From: Minisyncoccota bacterium
GTDB lineage: Bacteria > Patescibacteriota > Minisyncoccia > Phycocordibacterales > UBA2100
Assembly: GCA_043780835.1 (NCBI GenBank)
Contig: JAYWCB010000001.1
Coordinates: forward strand, 35,896-99,895
Reading direction: 5' to 3'
Length of the DNA: 64,000 nucleotides
In this document: positions 1,019 to 26,210 of the stretch, in pieces
Layout of the letters: each line of letters starts with the position of its first letter
Position numbering within the stretch: position 1 is the first letter of the stretch
The notes under the pieces: generated by a model
Told to the model about the DNA's origin: nothing
Databases searched by the model: none
What the model saw: only the letters and a program-made list of their open reading frames with translations
Position numbers and translations under genes: made by a program

Positions 1019-2053
1019 ATGAAAAATCGCATAGCGCTTCAGCACAACGAGAGTTACTGGCTAGCCGATGAGAAGCTGCAGCATGCATACTCGGCGATGG
1101 GTGCGGACACATTTTCGCGATACCCCGACTACAGCGAACTTACTGAATTGCTCGCTACATACGCAGGTGTTACACCGGATAAGGTATTAGTTACAAACGG
1201 CTCTGATGCAGCAGTGCGCTTAATCGCCGAAATAGAACACGCAGCGGGGCACAAGGTGCTATTACCAGTTCCCTCGTTTTATGGCTACGAGAAGATATTT
1301 ACTCAAATTGGTCTCAATTTTGATACGGTGTCTTTCACTGAGTCCCAGGGTGAGTTTATTTTTCCACTCGACGAAGTGAGGGCATTGATAGTGGACGGCG
1401 GGTACTCGACGCTCTTTATCTGTCAGCCAAACAATCCGCTTGGTTCTGCGATTCCTGAAGCAACAATGGAGGCGCTTATTGCACTGTGCGCGGATGTGGG
1501 AATACGCATCGTTATAGACGAAGCGTATTTTGAATTTTTAGGACGAACGTCTATTGCGGCTATTTCTAGAGGGGACGTTGTGATTTTGCGAACACTTTCG
1601 AAAGCGTTTGCGCTCGCGGGTGCTCGCGTAGGCTACGTGTGCGCCACTACTGATTATCTGAACCAGCTTTCAATACGTATGTTGCCATGGCAAGTCTCAA
1701 ATCCGTCTGTCTTTGCAGCGTGCACCGGACTTCGTCTCATCGATCATGTGAGAGATCGAATTGAGCTCATAAAAAAGGAACGAGAAGTTTTTGTGGGAGA
1801 GCTTCAGGCTATTGACGACTTGAAGGTGTATCCATCCGAAACAAACTTTGTTTTAATACGCGTCGCTAGAGGTGATGCGATCGCCGCCAATTTGAAAGAA
1901 CGGGGCGTTGATGTTGCGACATGCTCCTGGATGTCCGGTGATCCAGTCGCCAGAGCACTACTTACCGATACCATTCGCATGGCGGTACCCTCGCCTGAGG
2001 ACCGCGAAACCGTGGTGCACACCCTCAGACTGGCAATCGCAGCGAAATCCTAG
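1019..2053 (+). CDS. PLP-dependent class I/II aminotransferase, HisC/CobD-like
   Basis: Translation contains NPLG, 'IDEAYFEF' and the Lys motif 'LSKAFALAGARVGY', typical of histidinol-phosphate aminotransferase-like enzymes. Length 344 aa. Confidence 0.8.
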   Translation: MKNRIALQHNESYWLADEKLQHAYSAMGADTFSRYPDYSELTELLATYAGVTPDKVLVTNGSDAAVRLIAEIEHAAGHKVLLPVPSFYGYEKIFTQIGLNFDTVSFTESQGEFIFPLDEVRALIVDGGYSTLFICQPNNPLGSAIPEATMEALIALCADVGIRIVIDEAYFEFLGRTSIAAISRGDVVILRTLSKAFALAGARVGYVCATTDYLNQLSIRMLPWQVSNPSVFAACTGLRLIDHVRDRIELIKKEREVFVGELQAIDDLKVYPSETNFVLIRVARGDAIAANLKERGVDVATCSWMSGDPVARALLTDTIRMAVPSPEDRETVVHTLRLAIAAKS

Positions 2054-2095
2054 ACACTAGACAAGCTTATAATATAGTGGTACTATACATTCTAT

Positions 2096-3640
2096 ATGAA
2101 GTCGCCGAAAGCGAAATCAGCCACTGCGGGTAAGAAGGAATCTGCCCTACAGCGCCTCTCTGTATTTATGAATCCGTCTAAAACGGCAACCTCTGCATAT
2201 TGGTCAAAGATGCAATCAGAGTACATGATCGACGCCTTTAAAAGTGCCGCGAAACACGTGCCTGCGTATAGGTCCTTTTTGAAAGAGCGTGGCGTAATGC
2301 CGAAAGACATAAAGTCAGTTGCGGACTTTCGAAACGTACCTCCAACGTCAAAAAAGAATTATCTCCGAGCTCATCCGTGGGAGGACCTCTGCATGCCCGG
2401 CGCTCTTGCAGGCTCACAACTTGTATTAACCGCAACATCCGGATCAACGGGAGAGCCGTTTTACTTTCCGCGGACAGATGTCGTCGAAGAGCAGTCTTAC
2501 ATTTATCACCGCGCTTTTTTGAAAAACAGCGGTCTCGATCCGCAAGAGCCGACGCTCGTTATCGTAGCGTTTGGTATGGGAGTCTGGATCGGCGGACTCA
2601 TCACGTACGAAGCATTCAATCGTGTTTCGCAGCGAGATTTTCCTCTTACGGTACTTACTGCCGGAGTGAATAAGCACGAAATCTATGCTGCGCTACGCGA
2701 AATCGGCTCCCGATATACGCAGCTCGTGCTATGCGGGTACCCGCCGTTTGTAAAAGATATTATCGATGATGGTAAAGGTAACGGCGTTGACTGGAAGCAG
2801 TTCGATATGCGCATCGTTTGTGCGGCCGAAGGATTTTCTGAGGATTTCCGGGACTATCTCGTTGACGAAGCGCGGATGAAGAGTCGCTATCGAGACATTA
2901 TGAATATTTATGGCAGCGCAGAGCTTGGCACAATGGCGACTGAAACGCCGGTAGCAATTCTAGTGCGGGAACTGAGTTTGAAAAATCCGGTGCTCTTTTC
3001 AAAACTTTTCGGACAGGCGACACGATTGCCCACACTCGCGCAGTACGTGCCGTCATTTGTGAGCTTCGAAGCTGTCGACAATCGTATCTACTGCACGTCG
3101 GGCAATGTGCTACCGATGATCCGGTATGAAATCGGCGATCACGGCGGTGTCATGACGTACGCAGAGCTCAAAAATATTTGTGCCTCTGAAGGAATAGACC
3201 TTAAGGCAGAAGCAAAGCGAGTCGGCATTACAGATACCGTGAATGAACTTCCGTTTGTGTATGTGTATGAGCGCGCGGACCTTTCAACAAAACTCTATGG
3301 TGCGATCATTTATCCCGAGCACATAAAACACGGTCTTATTATCAAGGAACTGCATAAAGAGGTGACCGGCAAATTTACGATTGATACAAAGAATGACGAA
3401 AACCAGGATGAATACCTCGAGGTAAATGTTGAATTACAACCTAAAATTAAACCGACTGATGATTTGCAGCGTCGCGTCACGACTACTATTTCAAACGCGC
3501 TCATTGCAAAAAGTGCTGAGCATCGGAATAATTCTCAGTCTTTGGGAGATCGAGTTGTTCCCCGGATAGTCTTTTGGGAACACAATCATCCGGTGCAATT
3601 CCCCGTGGGCGCAAAACATCGCTGGGTGAAGAAGAAATAA
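2096..3640 (+). CDS. PaaK/CapK/F390-synthetase-like adenylate-forming enzyme (ANL superfamily)
   Basis: N-terminal 'HVPAYRSF...DIKSVADFRNVPPTSKKNYL' resembles PaaK. The AMP-binding motif 'TSGSTGEP' and 'YGSAELG' are present. True start may be an internal Met. Confidence 0.7.
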   Translation: MKSPKAKSATAGKKESALQRLSVFMNPSKTATSAYWSKMQSEYMIDAFKSAAKHVPAYRSFLKERGVMPKDIKSVADFRNVPPTSKKNYLRAHPWEDLCMPGALAGSQLVLTATSGSTGEPFYFPRTDVVEEQSYIYHRAFLKNSGLDPQEPTLVIVAFGMGVWIGGLITYEAFNRVSQRDFPLTVLTAGVNKHEIYAALREIGSRYTQLVLCGYPPFVKDIIDDGKGNGVDWKQFDMRIVCAAEGFSEDFRDYLVDEARMKSRYRDIMNIYGSAELGTMATETPVAILVRELSLKNPVLFSKLFGQATRLPTLAQYVPSFVSFEAVDNRIYCTSGNVLPMIRYEIGDHGGVMTYAELKNICASEGIDLKAEAKRVGITDTVNELPFVYVYERADLSTKLYGAIIYPEHIKHGLIIKELHKEVTGKFTIDTKNDENQDEYLEVNVELQPKIKPTDDLQRRVTTTISNALIAKSAEHRNNSQSLGDRVVPRIVFWEHNHPVQFPVGAKHRWVKKK

Positions 3641-3662
3641 CGGTATACTGAGGCCATTCGAT

Positions 3663-4844
3663 ATGGATGGCCTGCCACAGAAATTTGCGAGTATACAAGC
3701 AAAGCGTATCCCGGCCCAACCGCGCTTCTTTGATATTGAGAAAGATGCGACAGAATTTTTTGAGCTTATTGAATCAGGGAGCATCCTGAGGGTCGCTGAT
3801 GACTATGAGGAGGCATCTCGTGAACTCTTTGCCATACAAAATCCGACTCTTGTGTACGCTGCGGGTTTTGAAGATACCTTCAAGGCGCACTACGCAACGC
3901 TCACAAACGGCGAACCGTGGAAATTAGGTCGATGGGTCTACTTCCCCTGGAGTGGCACCGTCTGTCACATATTGTCCGAAGATGATTATTATCGGGTTCG
4001 AACTGCGCGTAACAGAAATCTCATCACAGAGGAAGAGCAACATAAGTTTTACAACGCCACGATCGGTATCGCGGGGCTTTCGGTAGGCTCGAGTGTCGCT
4101 TTTAGCATTGCGCTGCAGGGTGGTGGCAAGAAGTTAAAACTTGCAGACATGGATCATCTCGCGCTTTCCAATACGAATCGGGTACTCTCAGGTGCGACTG
4201 AGTTAGGTTCTCTTAAGGTAGACATGGCCGCACGTAGAATCTACGAAATAAACCCGTATGCTGACATTGAAGTGTTTCCGGACGGTCTGCAGCCGGAAAA
4301 TATTGAACGTTTTTTTGACGGTCTGAATATTGTTGTCGATGAGCTGGATAACTTAGCGGTCAAATATCTCATACGCGAGCACGCGAAGAAAAATCATATT
4401 GCCGTTGTTATGGGTGCCGATAATGGTGACAATGCAGTAGTTGATATCGAACGCTACGATGTTGAACCACAGCCCACGTTTTTCCACGGTCGTATGGGAG
4501 ATGTATCATACGAGTCACTCAAGTCGCTTGATAAGTTTGGTATCGGCAAAACGATTACGCAACATATTGGGCCCGAAAATGTAACAGTTCGTATGCAGGA
4601 ATCTCTTATCGAAATGGGTAAGTCAATCGTTTCCTGGCCTCAATTGGGTGGAGCGGCCCTTATCAACGGTGCAGCTGTCGCATACTGCGTTCGAAAAATT
4701 CTGAATGGCGAAGCGGTAGAATCAAACCGCGCCCTGGTGTCACTCGACGAAAAATTTGTACCTGATTTCATGTCTGATGAAGCACGCATCGAGCGCACCG
4801 AAACGGCCCGTACATTTGCGGCGCGCTTTGGAATTTCTATATGA
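3663..4844 (+). CDS. E1-like (ThiF/MoeB/HesA family) adenylyltransferase-fold protein with about 110-aa N-terminal extension and C-terminal extension
   Basis: Has 'RNRNLITEEEQHKF...IGIAGLSVGSS' (Rossmann Gly-rich loop) and 'ADMDHLALSNTNRV' (E1 D-x-D...N-R motif). Stop overlaps the next start (ATGA). Confidence 0.75.
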   Translation: MDGLPQKFASIQAKRIPAQPRFFDIEKDATEFFELIESGSILRVADDYEEASRELFAIQNPTLVYAAGFEDTFKAHYATLTNGEPWKLGRWVYFPWSGTVCHILSEDDYYRVRTARNRNLITEEEQHKFYNATIGIAGLSVGSSVAFSIALQGGGKKLKLADMDHLALSNTNRVLSGATELGSLKVDMAARRIYEINPYADIEVFPDGLQPENIERFFDGLNIVVDELDNLAVKYLIREHAKKNHIAVVMGADNGDNAVVDIERYDVEPQPTFFHGRMGDVSYESLKSLDKFGIGKTITQHIGPENVTVRMQESLIEMGKSIVSWPQLGGAALINGAAVAYCVRKILNGEAVESNRALVSLDEKFVPDFMSDEARIERTETARTFAARFGISI

Positions 4845-5893
4845 AAGACGATATTCTGTACGCGCTCGCCGCAGCAAATAGCGCTCCATCCGGTGAAAAT
4901 AGTCAGCCATGGCGGTTTGTCGTTTCGAACGACATTGTTGAATTGTGGAACCGACCCGAACGCGACCGCTCGCTGTATAACTGGCAGCAAAGTGCCTCGT
5001 ACCTCGCGAACGGAGCAGCGCTTGAGAATATGGTGATCGCAGCAACTGTGCGAGGTTTAAAAGCCGAAGTGGAGTATTTTCCTTCATCACAGACGGACCA
5101 TGTTGCGACGGTTCAATTTGTCCCAGGCGCGACACTCGATACTCTTGAAAGCGCAATTCCAAAACGTACGACAAATCGTAAGCCTTTTTTAAAGGATCCG
5201 CTGAGCGCCGCTCAATTGAATGCTCTGACACAGAGCTTCGACACGAGTAGTTGCACATTACGCATACTCACTGAGCGATCAGTCATTGAGCGACTTGGTC
5301 GAATCGGATCCACCAATGAAGAGATTATGTTTACGAACAAGCATATACATGATTTTTTCTTCGATCACGTGAGTTGGACAGCTCATGAGGATGGAATAAA
5401 GAAAGTGGGATTCTTTATTGACACACTCGAATTACCGCCGCCCGGACGATTCGTGTTCCGATTGCTCCGAATCTGGCCAATTGCAAAGATTCTGACAAGT
5501 CTTGGTTTGCATCGCTTGGTCGCCAAAGAAAACGGTGTCGTAAACGCTGCAGCCGCAGCTATCGGCGTAGTCTGTGTAAAGGGTCCGGAGCCAAAGGACA
5601 TGGTACAAGCGGGCCGCGCAATAGAGCGAATGTGGCTCACTGCGACATCTCTTGGTCTCTCGGTTCAGCCGCTGACGGGTGTTTTATTTTTTGATTTGAT
5701 GCGTACATATGGTGATGCGTCAAAGTTTTCTGTTTCCCACACACGCATGATCAAGGAGGCGGTAGAGGAAGTCGCTCGACTTTCTGGATTCACGGAAGGC
5801 ACGATAATCTTTATGTTTCGAGTGGGCATCTCCGACCCTCCGACCGCGCGATCTTCACGCTTTTCACTTGATCAGGCATGCCAAGCGACGTAA
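4841..5893 (+). CDS. Tandem nitroreductase-fold flavoprotein (SagB/McbC/ThcOx-like dehydrogenase)
   Basis: Two nitroreductase half-motifs: 'ENSQPWRFVV' near the N-terminus and 'RTTNRKPF' mid-protein. Length 350 aa, typical of double-domain azoline-oxidase-like proteins. Translationally coupled to the E1-like gene. Confidence 0.7.
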   Translation: MKDDILYALAAANSAPSGENSQPWRFVVSNDIVELWNRPERDRSLYNWQQSASYLANGAALENMVIAATVRGLKAEVEYFPSSQTDHVATVQFVPGATLDTLESAIPKRTTNRKPFLKDPLSAAQLNALTQSFDTSSCTLRILTERSVIERLGRIGSTNEEIMFTNKHIHDFFFDHVSWTAHEDGIKKVGFFIDTLELPPPGRFVFRLLRIWPIAKILTSLGLHRLVAKENGVVNAAAAAIGVVCVKGPEPKDMVQAGRAIERMWLTATSLGLSVQPLTGVLFFDLMRTYGDASKFSVSHTRMIKEAVEEVARLSGFTEGTIIFMFRVGISDPPTARSSRFSLDQACQAT

Positions 5894-7470
5894 GTATGGC
5901 TATATCTGATCTTGTGCAAATAAACGTCGATCTGTTATTGGTCGCAATTTCTGTGTGCGGGATTGCTCTTCTCGGTTTTCTCATCTATTTCAACAACACG
6001 TCCAGTGAAACGAACCGATCATTTTTGCTGTTTTCCGTACTGACTGTAATCTGGGGCATCTCGAATTATTTGGAATACCGATTCGCGACCATGCAATCCT
6101 CATTGTGGGCACTTCGTTCACATTTGTTTATTTCTGTCTGGCACGCATATGCGTTTTTTCGGCTTGCATATGTATATCCTGCGGAAAAGATTATTTTTCC
6201 CCGTTGGTTCACTCTTTATCTGACACCTGTCGTCGTGCTTACATCGATACTCACACTCACGCCATTCGTTTTTTCTGCACTCGAGCACGCGCCGACGGCT
6301 GGACAGGTAACGCGAGCCATACCCGCACCGGGCATTGCGGTCTTTATGATAGTTGCGTTCGGACTTTTAGCGGCGGCAATCGCTATACTATTTAATAAAA
6401 CAAGGCGTACTCCCGGTGAGTCGCGTAAACAAGCTATCGCTCTTTTAATAGGAATGGCCTTAACAGCGTGCCTGCTACTCGTCTTTAATGTAATACTTCC
6501 GAATGTTTTCAGTAATACAAGCTTCATACCTCTTGCCGCATTGTTCATCCTCCCGTTCATTGGCCTTACTTCTTATTCAATCTATCGATATCATTTTTTG
6601 AATTTGAAGGTCGCAACAACAGCGTTATTGGGCTTTCTAGTAACGATTTTTACGTTTTCAAACATTCTTTTTGCAAAGGATATCTCGGGAATCATCATCA
6701 ACGTGACTGCATTTATTATCGTGCTTTTAGGGTCGATCCGCATCGTTCGTGACACGCTGGATTTACAACTTGCAAATGAGGAGCGCTCAGAATTTATGTC
6801 GTTTGCATCTCATGAAATCCGAAACCCGATCACTGCGATGCGGGGTCTTGCGTCGTTAATCGTTGACGGTACAACGGGTGAGGTTACGCCGGACACAAAA
6901 GATGCCGCACAGAAAATACTCGTTTCAGGCCACGACGTATTGAACATTATTGCCACCTTCCTCAGTAAGGCAAAAATGGAACTTGGGAAAATTACGTATG
7001 ACAAAGCTACGTTTGACCTTGGCTACGCCGTTCAGAGCATTGCAGAGGGATACAAGCCGCACGCGGAAGTAAAAGGCTTGACGCTCGACCTTACCATCGA
7101 TTCCGCTCAAAAGTTCTTGATTACCGGCGACCAAAGTAAGGTCAAAGAAGTTGTGGGAAACCTCATCGACAATTCCCTTAAGTACACGAAAGAGGGAGGT
7201 ATGACTGTGTCCGTTGAACGCCATGGTCCTTTTGTGCGCGCAGTCATTAGCGACACCGGTGTCGGGATACCGAAAGAAACACTCTCGCAGCTATTCAAAA
7301 AATTCTCCCGCGCCGATGCGCAAAAAGTGAATCTGCTTGGTACCGGTGTCGGACTTTTCTTAGCGAAAACCTTTATCGAAGCGCAGGGCGGCCGCATTTG
7401 GGCTGAGTCTGAGGGCAAAGGACACGGGTCCCGCTTCATTGTTGAGTTCGCGGCGGCAATGGCTCCATAG
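5878..7470 (+). CDS. Sensor histidine kinase with 7TM-type N-terminal membrane domain
   Basis: Seven hydrophobic helices, then H-box 'SFASHEIRNPITAM' and HATPase_c motifs ('DNSLKYT', 'DTGVGIP', 'GTGVGL'). Confidence 0.85.
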   Translation: MPSDVSMAISDLVQINVDLLLVAISVCGIALLGFLIYFNNTSSETNRSFLLFSVLTVIWGISNYLEYRFATMQSSLWALRSHLFISVWHAYAFFRLAYVYPAEKIIFPRWFTLYLTPVVVLTSILTLTPFVFSALEHAPTAGQVTRAIPAPGIAVFMIVAFGLLAAAIAILFNKTRRTPGESRKQAIALLIGMALTACLLLVFNVILPNVFSNTSFIPLAALFILPFIGLTSYSIYRYHFLNLKVATTALLGFLVTIFTFSNILFAKDISGIIINVTAFIIVLLGSIRIVRDTLDLQLANEERSEFMSFASHEIRNPITAMRGLASLIVDGTTGEVTPDTKDAAQKILVSGHDVLNIIATFLSKAKMELGKITYDKATFDLGYAVQSIAEGYKPHAEVKGLTLDLTIDSAQKFLITGDQSKVKEVVGNLIDNSLKYTKEGGMTVSVERHGPFVRAVISDTGVGIPKETLSQLFKKFSRADAQKVNLLGTGVGLFLAKTFIEAQGGRIWAESEGKGHGSRFIVEFAAAMAP

Positions 7471-8441
7471 TGCCTTTTTCTGCTATATTGACGCCTATGT
7501 CACGACTATTCACTGGGCTTCAGCCCTCCGGAGTCCTCCATATAGGGAACTACTTCGGTGCACTCAAACCGATGGTGGAGCTCTTCAAAGAGCATGAGGG
7601 CTTGATCATGATTGCCGACTATCATGCGCTCACTTCACTGCGCGATCCGAGCGCCCTTCGCGAAAACATCATCAATGTCGTGACTGATTACCTCGCTGCG
7701 GGAATCGATCCTGAAAAAGCCATTATATTTAAGCAGTCCGATGTGCATGAGCACACCGAGCTTGCGTGGATATTTGATTGCCTCGTAACTGTTCCGTTCT
7801 TGCAACAGGCGCACGCATATAAAGACAAGGTTGCGAAGGGCCTCGAAGCAAATGCTGGTTTGTTTACCTATCCGATGCTCATGGCCGCCGACATTTTGCT
7901 GTATGAGACTGATCTCGTTCCCGTGGGTGCAGATCAACGGCAGCATGTGGAATATGCCCGTGAAGCTGCTTCAAAATTCAATCTGGCGTATGGCAATACG
8001 TTTAAAGAGCCGAAAGAAATGATTCAGGAAGAAATCGCAACGGTTCCCGGTGTCGACGGCAAAAAAATGTCGAAAAGTTACGGCAATACAATTGCACTTT
8101 TTTCACCGCGTGAAGAAATAGAAAAAGCTGTCATGAGTATCGTAACCGACTCATCGGGTGAGCGACCGGAAAATGTATACGCAATCCATAAACTGTTCAA
8201 AAGCGATGCAGAGCTTTCCGTATTGTACGAAGCAAACAAGGGAAAGTATAAAATTCTAAAAGACGCGCTTATTGATGATATCGATACATTTGTCGCGCCG
8301 ATGCGTGCACGTCGTGCCGACATATCACGCGATACGGTAATCTCTGTACTCAAGAATGGTGCAGAAAAAGCAAAAGCACAGGCTGCTGAAAAGATGCGTG
8401 AAGTGCGGCAGAAAATCGGCGTTGATATCTATTCAATATAA
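7470..8441 (+). CDS. trpS: Tryptophanyl-tRNA synthetase
   Basis: Class I 'LHIGNYFGAL' (HIGH-like) and 'KMSKS' motifs. Length 323 aa. Confidence 0.9.
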   Translation: MPFSAILTPMSRLFTGLQPSGVLHIGNYFGALKPMVELFKEHEGLIMIADYHALTSLRDPSALRENIINVVTDYLAAGIDPEKAIIFKQSDVHEHTELAWIFDCLVTVPFLQQAHAYKDKVAKGLEANAGLFTYPMLMAADILLYETDLVPVGADQRQHVEYAREAASKFNLAYGNTFKEPKEMIQEEIATVPGVDGKKMSKSYGNTIALFSPREEIEKAVMSIVTDSSGERPENVYAIHKLFKSDAELSVLYEANKGKYKILKDALIDDIDTFVAPMRARRADISRDTVISVLKNGAEKAKAQAAEKMREVRQKIGVDIYSI

Positions 8442-22715: not shown

Positions 22716-22824
22716 CGCTGTCACGGGCATCTCATAGTTCACTCAAACTTTTTAAAGGCTTGTTAGGGTTACGTGTGGTGTGCCGCGTCAACAGACACCG
22801 GAATACAGATTTAGGAAGATTCGA

Positions 22825-23190
22825 ATGAAAGTTCTCATTGTAGAGGATGAACCCCTCATCACGCTTGAATTGGAAGAAAAAATGCACGAATCAGGAATAC
22901 AGGTGATTTGTGCATCATATGGGATGGACGGAGTAGCGCTTGCGCTCCGCGAACAGCCGGACGTATTGGTTCTCGATCTCGGCCTGCCTGACATACCCGG
23001 ATTGGAGGTGCTCAAGCGCATTCAGGCACAGGGACTCGACATCCCAACCATCGTACTGACGGCCATGCGAGACCCTGATGTAAAACACGAGGTGCATCTT
23101 CAGGGTGTGAATGCGTATTTCGAGAAACCCTTTGACTCTCGATTACTTATTGCGCGCATGCATATAATCTCTAAGACAGTTCGTCAATGA
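22825..23190 (+). CDS. Stand-alone response regulator receiver domain (CheY-like)
   Basis: 'MKVLIVEDEP', 'VLVLDLGLPD' and a conserved Thr/Lys region. RBS AGGAAG 7 nt upstream of ATG 22825. The ORF call began at 22780. Confidence 0.8.
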   Translation: MKVLIVEDEPLITLELEEKMHESGIQVICASYGMDGVALALREQPDVLVLDLGLPDIPGLEVLKRIQAQGLDIPTIVLTAMRDPDVKHEVHLQGVNAYFEKPFDSRLLIARMHIISKTVRQ

Positions 23191-23342: not shown

Positions 23343-26210
23343 ATGAAGTCGTACGATCACAAGAAAATTGAGCAAAAGTGGCAAAAACAGTGGGCAAAAG
23401 AGGGCGCGTACAAAACAGATGCCGATACGTCAAAACCTAAATATTACGTACTCGACATGTTTCCGTATCCGTCCGGTGCGGGGCTTCACGTAGGGCATCC
23501 AAAAGGCTACATAGCGTCTGACATTGTTGCGAGAAAGAAGCGCGCAGAAGGATATCGCGTGTTACATCCGATGGGCTGGGACGCATTTGGACTACCGGCG
23601 GAAAATTACGCAATCAAAACAGGTACTCCACCGCAGCAAACAACCGACGAGTCCATCGCGACGTTCAAATCTCAGATTTCTAATCTTGCGCTCTCATATG
23701 ACTGGGATCGTGAGATTGGTAGTCATCGACCGGATTACTATCGGTGGACGCAGTGGCTCTTTACAAAATTTTTCGAAAAAGGGCTTGTCTATAAAAAGAA
23801 GGCACTTGTAAACTGGGATCCGGTGGATCAGACTGTACTTGCCAACGAGCAGGTCTTACCCGACGGCACAGCGGAACGCTCCGGCGCAATTGTTGAAAAA
23901 AAAGATCTCGAACAATGGTTTTATAAAATTACTGACTACGCAGATGAGCTTGCCGGCAGCCTCGACACAATCGACTGGCCTGAGTCAACGAAAATAAATC
24001 AACGCAACTGGATCGGTCGCTCAGAGGGCGCAGAAATCGATTTTTACCTGGACTTCGGTGACGAGACAATCAATGCTCGCACGGATCCGCAGGGAAAGCG
24101 CGCGCACATTACCGTATTCACGACCCGACCTGACACGCTCTTTGGTGCTACATACCTTGTGCTTGCCCCGGAGCATCCATGGGTGACACTCGCGCTTGGC
24201 CATACAACGGTGCTTGAAAATAACGATGAGGTTGCACAATACGTGGAATCTTCAAAAAAGAAAACTGATATCGATCGTTTAGCTGCCAACAAAGAAAAGA
24301 CCGGTGTTCAGTTGAAAGGTGTTATGGCGGTCAATCCTGCAACCGGACAAAACATCCCACTCTTTGTTGCTGACTATGTATTGGCTCACTACGGTACCGG
24401 TGCAATTATGGCAGTGCCGGCTCACGACGATCGTGACATGCTTTTTGCCCGCACGTTCGATCTCCCGATTACGCAAGTCGTGGTACCGGTATACGGCGCT
24501 GCAGATAAGAGGCCGGATGCGGTCTTTCGACAAACGATTAATGCAGTAGTTCGCAATGACGACGGGCGTGTTTTGTTTTTGAAATGGAAAGACTACCAAT
24601 GGGTTACAAACGTCATTGGCGGCGTCGAACAGGGAGAAACCATAGAACGCGCTGCCATTCGTGAAGTACTCGAAGAAACCGGGTATCGCACCCGACCAAT
24701 TTTTTCTTCACCGATTGTGATCGAGTCACATTTCTATGCTGAGCACAAAAAGGAATGGCGTTCTCGTATGGATACACCCGTACTGCTTGAACTTGAGAGT
24801 GACCAAAAAGGACCTCTTTCAGAAGAAGAGCGAGAAAAACACGACACCGTATGGATGACATATGAAGAAGCGCAGAAACACGGTCTATTCCATAACAATA
24901 AACTTGCCCTAGATCTTGCCCTCGGAAAAATAATCTCCTACTCGGATCCGCTCTATGGCGAGGAACAGGTGCTCATAAATTCAGGAGAGTTTAATGGCAT
25001 GAATGTCCGTAATGCAAAAAAGGCGATGACTGAAAAATTCGGACGCATAAAGAAGACATATAAAATGCGCGACTGGCTTATTTCGCGTCAGCGATACTGG
25101 GGAACTCCGATTCCGATTGTGTACGATCCGGAAGGGAAGGCTCATGCGATACCTGAGCAGCATTTGCCGTGGCTCCTACCGACTGATGTTGAGTATCTTC
25201 CAAAAGGCACCTCGCCACTCGGGAGTTCGAAAGAATTATTTGAAAGAACGGAACGTATCTTTGGAAAAGGTTGGAAGCCGGAAATCGATACCATGGATAC
25301 CTTTGCGTGCTCTTCGTGGTATTTTTTCCGCTTTGCGGATCCGCATAACAGCGACGAGTTTGCATCAAAGAAAGCTTTGGAGGAATGGCTGCCGGTAGAT
25401 CTCTACATAGGCGGCGCAGAGCACACCGTGCTGCACTTGCTGTACGCACGCTTTTACACCAAAGCGCTACGAGACATGGGATACCTTGATTTCGACGAGC
25501 CGTTTCTTAAATTACGCCATCAGGGTCTGATCGTAGCAGAGGATGGACGCAAAATGAGCAAGCGATATGGCAACGTCATAAATCCTGACGACATCGTAGA
25601 GAGCTACGGAGCAGACACATTACGTGTCTACGAAATGTTTATGGGACCGTTTCAAGATTCGATTGCATGGAATACACAGAGTATGATCGGTTCACGGCGG
25701 TTTCTGGAGCGCGTGTGGCGACTGAGCGAACATGCGGGGGACACGCCTGATGACTCGCTCGAACGGCAGCTCCATCGCACCATTAAAAAAGTGACCGAAG
25801 ATATCGAATTGTTCAAGTTCAATACGGCGATTTCGACACTGATGATATTCGTAAATGAGGCGGAAAAAAAATCTCTGTCCGAAGACCAGTTCGGTCGCTT
25901 CTTGCAGTTGCTCGCACCGTTTGCGCCGCATATTGCAGAGGAACTCTGGCACGAAATCGGCCATATCGAATCTATCGTTTCGTTTCCAATGCCCCTCTAT
26001 GACGACGACATGCTCGAAGAAGATTTTGTAACAGTAGCGATCCAAATAAACGGAAAGACTCGCGCCGACGTTGTGCTCCCTATGGGCACCAATAACGCCG
26101 AAACTGAGACGCGGGCGGCAGAAGCAGTTGCAGCAAGACTCGACGGCAAAACAGTCACGCGCATCATAGTAGTCCCGAACAAATTGGTGAACTTTGTTCT
26201 CACAGAATAG
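23343..26210 (+). CDS. leuS: Leucyl-tRNA synthetase with an inserted Nudix domain
   Basis: 'HVGHPKGY' (HIGH), 'KMSKR', and CP1 editing motifs 'TTRPDTLFGATY' and 'GTGAIMAVPAHDDRD'. At 955 aa it is about 100 aa longer than E. coli LeuRS. Confidence 0.92.
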   Translation: MKSYDHKKIEQKWQKQWAKEGAYKTDADTSKPKYYVLDMFPYPSGAGLHVGHPKGYIASDIVARKKRAEGYRVLHPMGWDAFGLPAENYAIKTGTPPQQTTDESIATFKSQISNLALSYDWDREIGSHRPDYYRWTQWLFTKFFEKGLVYKKKALVNWDPVDQTVLANEQVLPDGTAERSGAIVEKKDLEQWFYKITDYADELAGSLDTIDWPESTKINQRNWIGRSEGAEIDFYLDFGDETINARTDPQGKRAHITVFTTRPDTLFGATYLVLAPEHPWVTLALGHTTVLENNDEVAQYVESSKKKTDIDRLAANKEKTGVQLKGVMAVNPATGQNIPLFVADYVLAHYGTGAIMAVPAHDDRDMLFARTFDLPITQVVVPVYGAADKRPDAVFRQTINAVVRNDDGRVLFLKWKDYQWVTNVIGGVEQGETIERAAIREVLEETGYRTRPIFSSPIVIESHFYAEHKKEWRSRMDTPVLLELESDQKGPLSEEEREKHDTVWMTYEEAQKHGLFHNNKLALDLALGKIISYSDPLYGEEQVLINSGEFNGMNVRNAKKAMTEKFGRIKKTYKMRDWLISRQRYWGTPIPIVYDPEGKAHAIPEQHLPWLLPTDVEYLPKGTSPLGSSKELFERTERIFGKGWKPEIDTMDTFACSSWYFFRFADPHNSDEFASKKALEEWLPVDLYIGGAEHTVLHLLYARFYTKALRDMGYLDFDEPFLKLRHQGLIVAEDGRKMSKRYGNVINPDDIVESYGADTLRVYEMFMGPFQDSIAWNTQSMIGSRRFLERVWRLSEHAGDTPDDSLERQLHRTIKKVTEDIELFKFNTAISTLMIFVNEAEKKSLSEDQFGRFLQLLAPFAPHIAEELWHEIGHIESIVSFPMPLYDDDMLEEDFVTVAIQINGKTRADVVLPMGTNNAETETRAAEAVAARLDGKTVTRIIVVPNKLVNFVLTE
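24483..24971 (+). other. Nudix hydrolase domain inserted within the CP1 editing domain of LeuRS (aa about 381-543)
   Basis: Perfect Nudix box 'GGVEQGETIERAAIREVLEETGY' (G-x5-E-x7-REUxEExGU) at nt 24618-24686. It lies between the editing-domain motif 'AHDDRD...PITQVV' and 'SGEFNG', where E. coli has only about 25 aa. Confidence 0.6.

Follow-up and report, generated by a model that had tools for sequence, protein, structure and literature searches.

An oxazolone-synthetase-type biosynthetic cassette with a linked sensor kinase as the best reading of a conserved gene block in a Minisyncoccota bacterium

What does a bacterium with a reduced genome make with an adenylating ligase, an E1-like protein and a tandem-nitroreductase flavoprotein encoded side by side? 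The question is raised by positions 2096 to 5893 of a 64,000-nucleotide stretch of contig JAYWCB010000001.1 from a Minisyncoccota bacterium of the Candidate Phyla Radiation (CPR; Patescibacteria); this whole stretch is called the window below. A first-pass annotation had compared the three genes with the thiazole/oxazole-modified microcin (TOMM) and microcin B17 systems. Its idea of a heterocycle stood, in that an E1-like/ThiF protein and a tandem nitroreductase would make and oxidize a five-membered ring, whereas the TOMM/microcin analogy gave way to a better match, the Rv1355c family. The best reading of the block from 1019 to 7470 is that of an oxazolone-synthetase-type biosynthetic cassette with a linked sensor kinase.

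The evidence that carries this reading comes from the ThiF-fold protein and the flavin-dependent oxidase (FDO), whose genes share the ATGA at 4841-4844. As this overlap was read directly from the sequence and the open reading frames (ORFs) lie where the first-pass annotation had placed them, both the gene content and the translational coupling are as it described. The family to which the pair belongs includes TrzS (Rv1355c), reported in 2025 to turn N-acyl-tryptophan in vitro into an N-acyl tryptazolone by an ATP-dependent cyclization and an O2-dependent desaturation; its substrate is made by TrzA (Rv1356c), and the hosts of the TrzAS pathway are Mycobacterium tuberculosis, M. smegmatis and Rhodococcus jostii (PMC12856293). 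The best NCBIfam match of the ThiF protein was NF005901, 'Rv1355c family protein' (E 3e-96, 323 bits, profile positions 16-340 of 722), and the oxidase matched a later part of the same profile (E 2.3e-56, 191 bits, positions 381-718). NF005901 is an equivalog with a cut-off of 476 bits, and each half alone fell under it, as expected of a split gene; the concatenate of 3663-4841 and 4841-5890 scored 520.7 bits in one stretch over positions 17-718. A tblastn search with this concatenate returned 11 annotated 'Rv1355c family' fusions on actinobacterial plasmids (Rhodococcus, Mycolicibacterium and Mycobacterium), each a one-piece match over 82-89% of the query at about 30% identity. The family had 951 representatives at E ≤ 1e-30, and the nearest 150 (50%-identity representatives) included 85 stand-alone ThiF proteins and 57 ThiF-FDO fusions, with an FDO domain in 60; split and fused forms alternate freely through the Rv1355c/TrzS family. 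We regard it as very probable that the window's ThiF and FDO proteins are a split TrzS-type enzyme pair.

Within the ThiF protein, the Pfam ThiF domain spans residues 116-252 and leaves about 115 N-terminal and 140 C-terminal residues uncovered, the extra regions that the first-pass annotation had pointed out. The N-terminal one (about residues 1-105) is an alpha/beta domain specific to the family and the C-terminal one is helical; neither has a Pfam match at E ≤ 5. Alignment with four plasmid fusion proteins showed that the whole ThiF half was common to these and the CPR protein, with shared blocks ahead of the Rossmann fold ('GRW.Y.PW...VR..RNRN.IT..EQ') and near the C-terminus ('SWPQLGG'); because they are present in the aligned fusion proteins, the 'extra' regions are hallmarks of the Rv1355c family. 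Identity to fused Rv1355c-type proteins was 32-34%, measured on plasmid-borne Rhodococcus and Mycolicibacterium homologues and not on TrzS itself. The ThiF protein's score on NF005901 compares with 82 bits for PRK08223, a stand-alone model of 296 positions that may represent TyzB, the separate ThiF protein of another oxazolone system. The aspartate of the adenylation motif, D229 ('LDN', aligned to 'CDS' of the fused proteins), was invariant in both ThiF alignments (A2 and A3), as were D162/D164, N170/N172/R173 and K185. The D217A mutation abolishes cyclization by TrzS (PMC12856293), and from the 'TDN' motif of ThiF/MoeB proteins and residue numbering (199-202 in the plasmid homologues), not from an alignment with TrzS, we infer that D229 is the equivalent of D217. 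Across many CPR lineages the ThiF protein is 60-81% identical, and a protein on a metagenomic contig (P0121) is identical to that of the window.

The oxidase contains two nitroreductase-type stretches, one toward each end. Its six NCBIfam matches at E ≤ 0.01 include PRK14851 (E 4.3e-65), NF005901, the Acg family (E 3.7e-43) and PRK14852, and its closest solved sequence is MsAcg (2ymv), also the reference structure chosen by the TrzS authors (PMC12856293). Its identity to the FDO halves of fused proteins is 21-25%, and R109/R113 ('R..NRK'), H170, W179 and R327 are invariant in the comparison.

Conservation of the neighborhood across relatives, a check proposed in the first-pass annotation, bore on its caveat that linkage within the operon was weak because the block runs in the same direction as housekeeping genes. 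A scan with a ligase alignment, taking one genome per species, gave 79 loci, 67 from CPR and 12 from other bacteria; in each, six-frame ORFs were searched with the window proteins and all neighboring ORFs were clustered. Of the CPR loci that could be evaluated, 64 of 66 had a ThiF gene near the ligase gene and on its strand (immediately downstream of it in 54), 51 of 60 an oxidase gene, and 43 of 52 a histidine kinase gene. The outer flanks vary by lineage, with DnaK/DnaJ, pilus genes or efflux genes, and therefore the block is kept together by selection and not by shared ancestry of a larger region. Linkage of the trio and the kinase is far beyond chance, so the caveat falls away, and of the multi-gene blocks that we saw in Paceibacteria-type CPR genomes the cassette is one of the more strongly conserved. 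In the library searched, no paper linked ThiF, nitroreductase and Patescibacteria. Extra genes occur sporadically, namely short-chain dehydrogenases/reductases (SDRs), 2-hydroxyacid dehydrogenases and TrmB regulators, and a 305-aa methyltransferase-like gene lies between the oxidase and kinase genes in 7 loci. One CPR contig (L031:1673-9222) carries two tandem ligase-ThiF pairs with a radical S-adenosylmethionine (SAM)/SPASM gene (4535-5485) between them. In four loci (L053, L057, L061 and L065) a divergent nitroreductase-fold gene (39-58 bits to the window oxidase) lies 5' of the dehydrogenase/ligase genes and not after ThiF, which suggests gene-order shuffling or a second oxidase type.

The genes of the block, from the six-frame ORF list, are collected in the table. 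The flanks were as the first-pass annotation had them, a membrane protein and an aminotransferase upstream and a seven-transmembrane (7TM) sensor kinase downstream.

Table. Features of the block and its immediate flanks, in window coordinates (PLP, pyridoxal phosphate; ANL, class of adenylate-forming enzymes)
Feature	Coordinates	Strand	Remarks
Small multi-pass membrane protein, 165 aa	520-1017	+	weakly associated with the cassette
HisC-like class I/II PLP aminotransferase	1019-2053	+	PF00155, E 1.4e-42
PaaK-fold adenylate-forming (ANL) ligase, 514 aa	2096-3640	+	'TSGSTGEP' and PaaK-type model matches
ThiF-fold ATP-dependent cyclase (putative), 393 aa	3663-4844	+	equivalent of the N-terminal half of TrzS/Rv1355c
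Flavin-dependent oxidase (FDO), 350 aa; proposed C-alpha/C-beta desaturase	4841-5893	+	equivalent of the C-terminal half of TrzS
HisKA_7TM sensor histidine kinase	5878 or 5896 to 7470	+	PF16927, PF00512, PF02518
Tryptophanyl-tRNA synthetase (TrpRS)	7470-8441	+	directly after the kinase gene, AspRS next; passes TIGR00233

The later of the two kinase starts, an ATG 3 nt past the oxidase stop, is the one chosen in the public gene call on the identical contig (locus L086). The public call for the ligase on that contig (L086:8731-9978) is just 415 aa long; because ligase residues 36-100 are rich in positions invariant among homologues (W36, F48, A57, Y58, K86 and N88-R91), the 514-aa ORF is the better model. 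The membrane protein had no Pfam or NCBIfam match, and its homologue lay 5' of the aminotransferase gene in only 3 of the 67 CPR loci (L007, L008 and L022). Upstream of its gene, at 54-85, a strong terminator-like hairpin with a 13-bp stem and T-runs on both strands may delimit the co-directional block on its 5' side. A promoter/terminator scan gave counts no better than those of shuffled sequences, and a 10-of-12 promoter-like site at 2051-2078, just 5' of the ligase gene, is not counted as evidence.

The motif 'TSGSTGEP' occupies residues 114-121 of the ligase, which matches PaaK-type models only, and weakly (54 bits on TIGR02155 vs a cut-off of 646); it passes neither TIGR02155 nor NF041878, the models for PaaK phenylacetate-coenzyme A (CoA) ligase. 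In both fold and sequence it comes closest to CoA ligases (PaaK, BT_0428 and 2-hydroxyisobutyryl-CoA ligase), and its nearest named relatives come from Kaiserbacteria, Paceibacteria and Minisyncoccia; homologues outside CPR, in Myxococcota, Chthonomonadales and Cellvibrionaceae, are 33-39% identical and gave no clue to the substrate. Known oxazolone clusters encode an N-acyl-amino-acid synthase (NAS), and we searched for an acyltransferase in the 64-kb window and within 7 kb on either side of each locus. Four TrzA-type sequences served as queries, two 'hypothetical' genes adjoining Rhodococcus plasmid Rv1355c genes and the N-termini of the triple fusions P0320 and P0353; they were mutually homologous (E 1e-19 to 1e-22). 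Neither these sequences nor a hidden Markov model (HMM) built from them matched any six-frame ORF of the window or loci at E ≤ 10, and no GNAT or NAS family recurred in cassette neighborhoods. The window and the loci searched lack the N-acyl-amino-acid synthase.

The ThiF family also occurs in other arrangements. In an 863-aa protein, P0358, a homologue of the ligase (37% identity over 491 aa, E 9e-133) is fused to the N-terminus of a ThiF of the window's type; there is no oxidase domain, and we gave this fusion moderate weight because it comes from a single contig. P0320 (902 aa) and P0353 (949 aa) consist of a presumed TrzA-type acyltransferase domain followed by ThiF and FDO, and would each be a one-protein oxazolone pathway. 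A Streptomyces plasmid (strain NBC_01471, L088:6941-8739) encodes a stand-alone 388-aa ThiF protein (36% identity) that shares this N-terminal domain; its gene is in translational coupling with that of a 211-aa GNAT protein (Acetyltransf_3), with a MerR regulator upstream and no oxidase; similar ThiF matches lie on three further Streptomyces/Kitasatospora plasmids.

The first-pass annotation had asked whether the ligase might stand in place of a YcaO protein. This is unlikely because the ThiF domain of the characterized relatives is itself the ATP-dependent cyclase and acts on a free N-acyl amino acid, not a peptide; the ligase more plausibly replaces the missing N-acyl-amino-acid synthase. 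That the block encodes a small-molecule, oxazolone-type pathway with a split TrzS-like pair and the ligase as an integral upstream step seems to us somewhat probable; that the ligase itself makes the acyl-amino acid we put a little short of even. A rival account keeps the same ThiF/FDO oxazolone chemistry and limits the ligase to providing an N-acyltransferase encoded elsewhere with acyl-CoA or acyl-AMP, or places its action after ring formation. The kinship with CoA ligases, the use of acyl-CoA donors in known pathways (PMC10404671, PMC12856293) and the limits of the regions searched for an acyltransferase all speak for it; against it stand the failure to find a TrzA-type acyltransferase in the 64 kb or in the 67 CPR loci, the lack of any recurrent GNAT or NAS family, and the adjacency of ligase and ThiF genes, which, like their fusion in P0358, fits consecutive steps on one small molecule. 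We consider this account unlikely.

Upstream of the ligase, an amino-acid/2-oxo-acid enzyme was encoded in 32 of the 67 CPR loci, nearly always directly 5' of the ligase gene. Three unrelated families occupy the position: ELFV-type (Leu/Phe/Val) dehydrogenases in 20 loci, HisC-like aminotransferases in 9-10, including the window, and class IV IlvE-like enzymes in 4. The window protein scored 207.6 bits on TIGR01141 (hisC), under the cut-off of 276.55. Because three unrelated enzymes of the same reaction type fill the same operon slot, amino-acid/2-oxo-acid conversion appears to feed the pathway.

Such an enzyme also suits a second rival, in which a different heterocycle is made from a 2-oxo or 2-hydroxy acid, for example an indolmycin-like oxazolinone or a tryptophan or other aromatic analogue, and TrpRS is an immunity or target gene. 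The coupling enzyme of indolmycin biosynthesis, Ind3, is PaaK-like, and the indolmycin cluster encodes a resistant TrpRS. In that pathway a transaminase, a C-methyltransferase and a ketoreductase feed Ind3, which is ATP-dependent and closes the oxazolinone (PMC8246080). Besides the TrpRS gene after the kinase, a paralogue flanks the cassette on the other side, at L086:5282-6280 on the minus strand, 59-1057 nt upstream of window position 1; both pass TIGR00233 (269.7 and 274.7 bits vs 176.75) and they are 37% identical to each other. The presence of 2-hydroxyacid dehydrogenase, SDR and methyltransferase genes in some loci, the action of TrzS, the closest characterized enzyme, on tryptophan, and P0292 are further points in favor. 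In P0292, a 924-aa protein from a Logan contig, a complete aromatic amino acid lyase domain (PF00221, E 1e-170) is joined to a ThiF relative (42% identity), a further tie of the ThiF family to aromatic amino acid chemistry. On the other side, TrpRS follows the kinase in only 7 other species loci of the 67, together with AspRS, an adjacency that may be inherited gene order; Ind4-6-type arginine-modifying genes were not seen; and neither a ThiF nor a nitroreductase-fold enzyme belongs to the indolmycin pathway described in PMC8246080. We judge this rival quite unlikely. About 1 kb upstream of the window start, next to the TrpRS paralogue, L086:4131-5270 (minus strand) encodes a 379-aa fusion of a type II chorismate mutase and a class I SAM methyltransferase, one more gene close to the cassette that relates to aromatic amino acids.

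The comparison with which the first-pass annotation began, a TOMM/microcin B17-like or other ribosomally synthesized and post-translationally modified peptide (RiPP) pathway, would have the E1-like protein dock or activate a precursor, the flavoprotein oxidize azolines and the ligase replace YcaO. The oxidase, which had been called SagB-type, did not match TIGR03605 at E ≤ 0.01, and the TOMM docking/cyclodehydratase models TIGR03603 and TIGR03882 were absent from the 18 NCBIfam matches of the ThiF protein at the same threshold. The N-terminal domain had been suggested to be a RiPP recognition element or peptide clamp; this was not confirmed, as it has no Pfam match and MoeB was as good a structural neighbor of the ThiF protein as MccB or PaaA. 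Spacers of 42 nt (2054-2095, aminotransferase/ligase) and 22 nt (3641-3662, ligase/ThiF), with overlaps at the other junctions, leave no space for a precursor gene, and no small or YcaO-size unassigned gene recurs in the 67 loci. All genes of the block being assigned, neither YcaO nor a precursor peptide is encoded there, in agreement with the first-pass annotation, although the YcaO HMM was not run on the whole window or genome. Since the pair also passes the cut-off of a family that acts on free N-acyl amino acids (PMC12856293), a RiPP pathway is very improbable.

A cofactor or sulfur-transfer role, which the first-pass annotation had also entertained, found no footing in the scores. Sulfur-carrier adenylyltransferases of the MoeB and ThiF types were rejected at 66.4 bits vs a cut-off of 449 and 69.2 vs 159, and TcdA, the tRNA ct6A dehydratase, at 52.1 bits vs 304 on NF011696, although TcdA cyclodehydratases are the closest solved sequences to the ThiF protein (E 8e-13). 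The MoeB, ThiF and MccB families have CxxC zinc pairs and an active-site cysteine; the only cysteines here are C101 and C342, with no CxxC, and the block leaves no space for a small GG-ending (ThiS/MoaD-like) ORF. Chance neighborhood of such a housekeeping enzyme, a catabolic phenylacetate-CoA ligase and a nitroreductase of generic type, for which the TcdA resemblance and the adjoining aminoacyl-tRNA synthetase genes might speak, is just as improbable, since every one of these models, PaaK included, falls far under its cut-off, catalytic and zinc cysteines and a ThiS/MoaD-like gene are lacking, and the trio and kinase remain together while the outer flanks change.

The 7TM kinase, encoded by the conserved gene that closes the oxazolone-type cassette, is a candidate for a sensing or regulatory role tied to the product. 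Each of the 43 loci with a kinase gene gave an alignment to the window kinase that starts within its first 80 residues and so reaches the 7TM region, and a response regulator adjoins the cassette in 13 loci. The window has a single response-regulator-like ORF, at 22756-23190 on the plus strand (E about 1e-10 against receiver domains of other loci); it lies 15 kb away from the kinase gene and just 5' of a 955-aa ORF (23343-26210). A functional tie between the kinase and the product we hold to be rather unlikely, though by no means negligible.

Taken together, the genes suggest the following order of steps. The aminotransferase, by the position of its gene, would convert an amino acid, hydrophobic or aromatic, to its 2-oxo acid or back, a job probably done in other loci by a Leu/Phe-type dehydrogenase or an IlvE-type aminotransferase. 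The ligase would then activate a carboxylic acid by adenylation, the 2-oxo acid or one of its derivatives being the probable choice, and make an N-acyl amino acid by coupling it with an amino acid, taking over the role of OxzA, TyzA or TrzA. By homology to TrzS, TyzB and OxzB, the ThiF protein is predicted to adenylate the free alpha-carboxylate of the acyl-amino acid, whereupon the amide oxygen would close an oxazol-5(4H)-one, and by homology to the FDO domain of TrzS and to TyzC the translationally coupled flavin mononucleotide (FMN) oxidase is predicted to desaturate the C-alpha/C-beta bond to yield a conjugated oxazolone. Finally, to judge from its linkage, the 7TM histidine kinase may sense the product, or a cue by which its synthesis is controlled. 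We give an even chance to an oxazolone, or a heterocycle closely related to one, as the product.

Several observations weigh against this scheme. Beyond homology, the steps are what we infer from gene order and neighborhood. Identity to characterized-type proteins is low in both halves of the pair, and substrate and product could differ from those of the characterized relatives. R540 and Q651 are FDO residues important in TrzS (PMC12856293); by a mapping that an offset in numbering makes insecure, R540 would fall in 'DRIRF' of the fused homologues, where CPR oxidases have 'NEEIMF'. About 15% of loci, L067 for example, have no oxidase gene, and ligase homologues outside CPR have no ThiF, FDO or kinase gene nearby and no conserved neighbors. 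The ligase could equally make a CoA thioester for an unlinked acyltransferase. The P0358 fusion is one protein on one 7.5-kb ENA metagenome contig and could be due to misassembly or to loss of a stop codon. In the window the kinase gene has no response-regulator gene beside it, and the kinase may regulate the biosynthetic operon without binding its product. Many CPR bacteria are anaerobic, while known FDOs use O2.

Set beside TrzAS, the oxazolone-type cassette shares a ThiF-like cyclase, which has the N-terminal region specific to this family and retains the adenylation-motif aspartate, and an Acg-like flavin-dependent oxidase, the joined pair passing the family equivalog cut-off. It differs in being two translationally coupled genes where TrzS is one fusion, in having a PaaK-fold ligase before the cyclase and no TrzA acyltransferase, in its amino-acid/2-oxo-acid enzyme upstream and 7TM histidine kinase downstream, and in its host, a genome-reduced CPR bacterium and not a mycolic-acid producer. 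In the N-acyl-tyrazolone system TyzACB (Rv2336-2338c) the cyclase and oxidase are likewise separate proteins from adjacent genes with the same two-step logic, acting on N-acyl-Tyr/Phe substrates; however, TyzB is a 318-aa ThiF protein, compared with 393 aa and an extra N-terminal domain in the window, and TyzA, also separate, is an acyltransferase like acyl-homoserine-lactone synthases that uses acyl-CoA, a role for which we found no homologue (PMC10404671). OxzAB of Pseudoalteromonas rubra, the founding oxazolone synthetase, shows the same pairing of ThiF and nitroreductase domains and the same making of oxazolones from N-acyl amino acids, OxzB likewise acting on N-acyl-Tyr/Phe, but OxzB is a fusion with the N-acyltransferase OxzA alongside, it occurs in Proteobacteria, and no ligase or kinase neighbors are reported (bioRxiv 10.1101/2020.06.11.147165). 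With the TOMM and microcin B17 systems (McbBCD, SagBCD) the cassette has in common the abstract logic of ATP-driven cyclodehydration followed by FMN-dependent oxidation with E1-like and nitroreductase folds; the ribosomal peptide substrate, YcaO cyclodehydratase, docking-only E1-like protein and SagB-type dehydrogenase of TOMM systems were not found here. A synthase gene beside the gene of a multi-pass membrane histidine kinase is also the arrangement of CqsA/CqsS and LqsA/LqsS in alpha-hydroxyketone signaling, to which the cassette bears no sequence relationship, so that the resemblance is one of gene order only. New with respect to known oxazolone systems are the PaaK-fold ligase, the amino-acid/2-oxo-acid enzyme, the 7TM kinase and the lack of an N-acyl-amino-acid synthase.

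CPR genomes are about 1 Mb in size and are usually described as nearly without biosynthetic or secondary metabolism. Because a specialized metabolite pathway has been retained in such minimal genomes, a role central to the CPR lifestyle is suggested. Oxazolone synthetases were discovered only in 2021-2025, and the cassette offers a variant whose substrate apparently comes from a PaaK-fold ligase and not from an acyltransferase, while the dedicated amino-acid/2-oxo-acid enzyme points to the origin of the acyl or amino-acid part. The function of oxazolone products is not known, and the TrzS authors raise signaling as an open possibility (PMC12856293). The conserved 7TM sensor kinase ties oxazolones to a sensor in a way that can be tested, and so bears on what oxazolones are for. 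An idea that we consider unlikely to be right is that the cassette is a self-contained signal system of CPR/Patescibacteria, in which an acid derived from an amino acid is ligated, cyclized and oxidized to a reactive oxazolone-type molecule, to be detected by the co-transcribed 7TM kinase. If this were true, these host-dependent ultrasmall bacteria would have a signal for cell-cell or host sensing, and oxazolones a physiological role.

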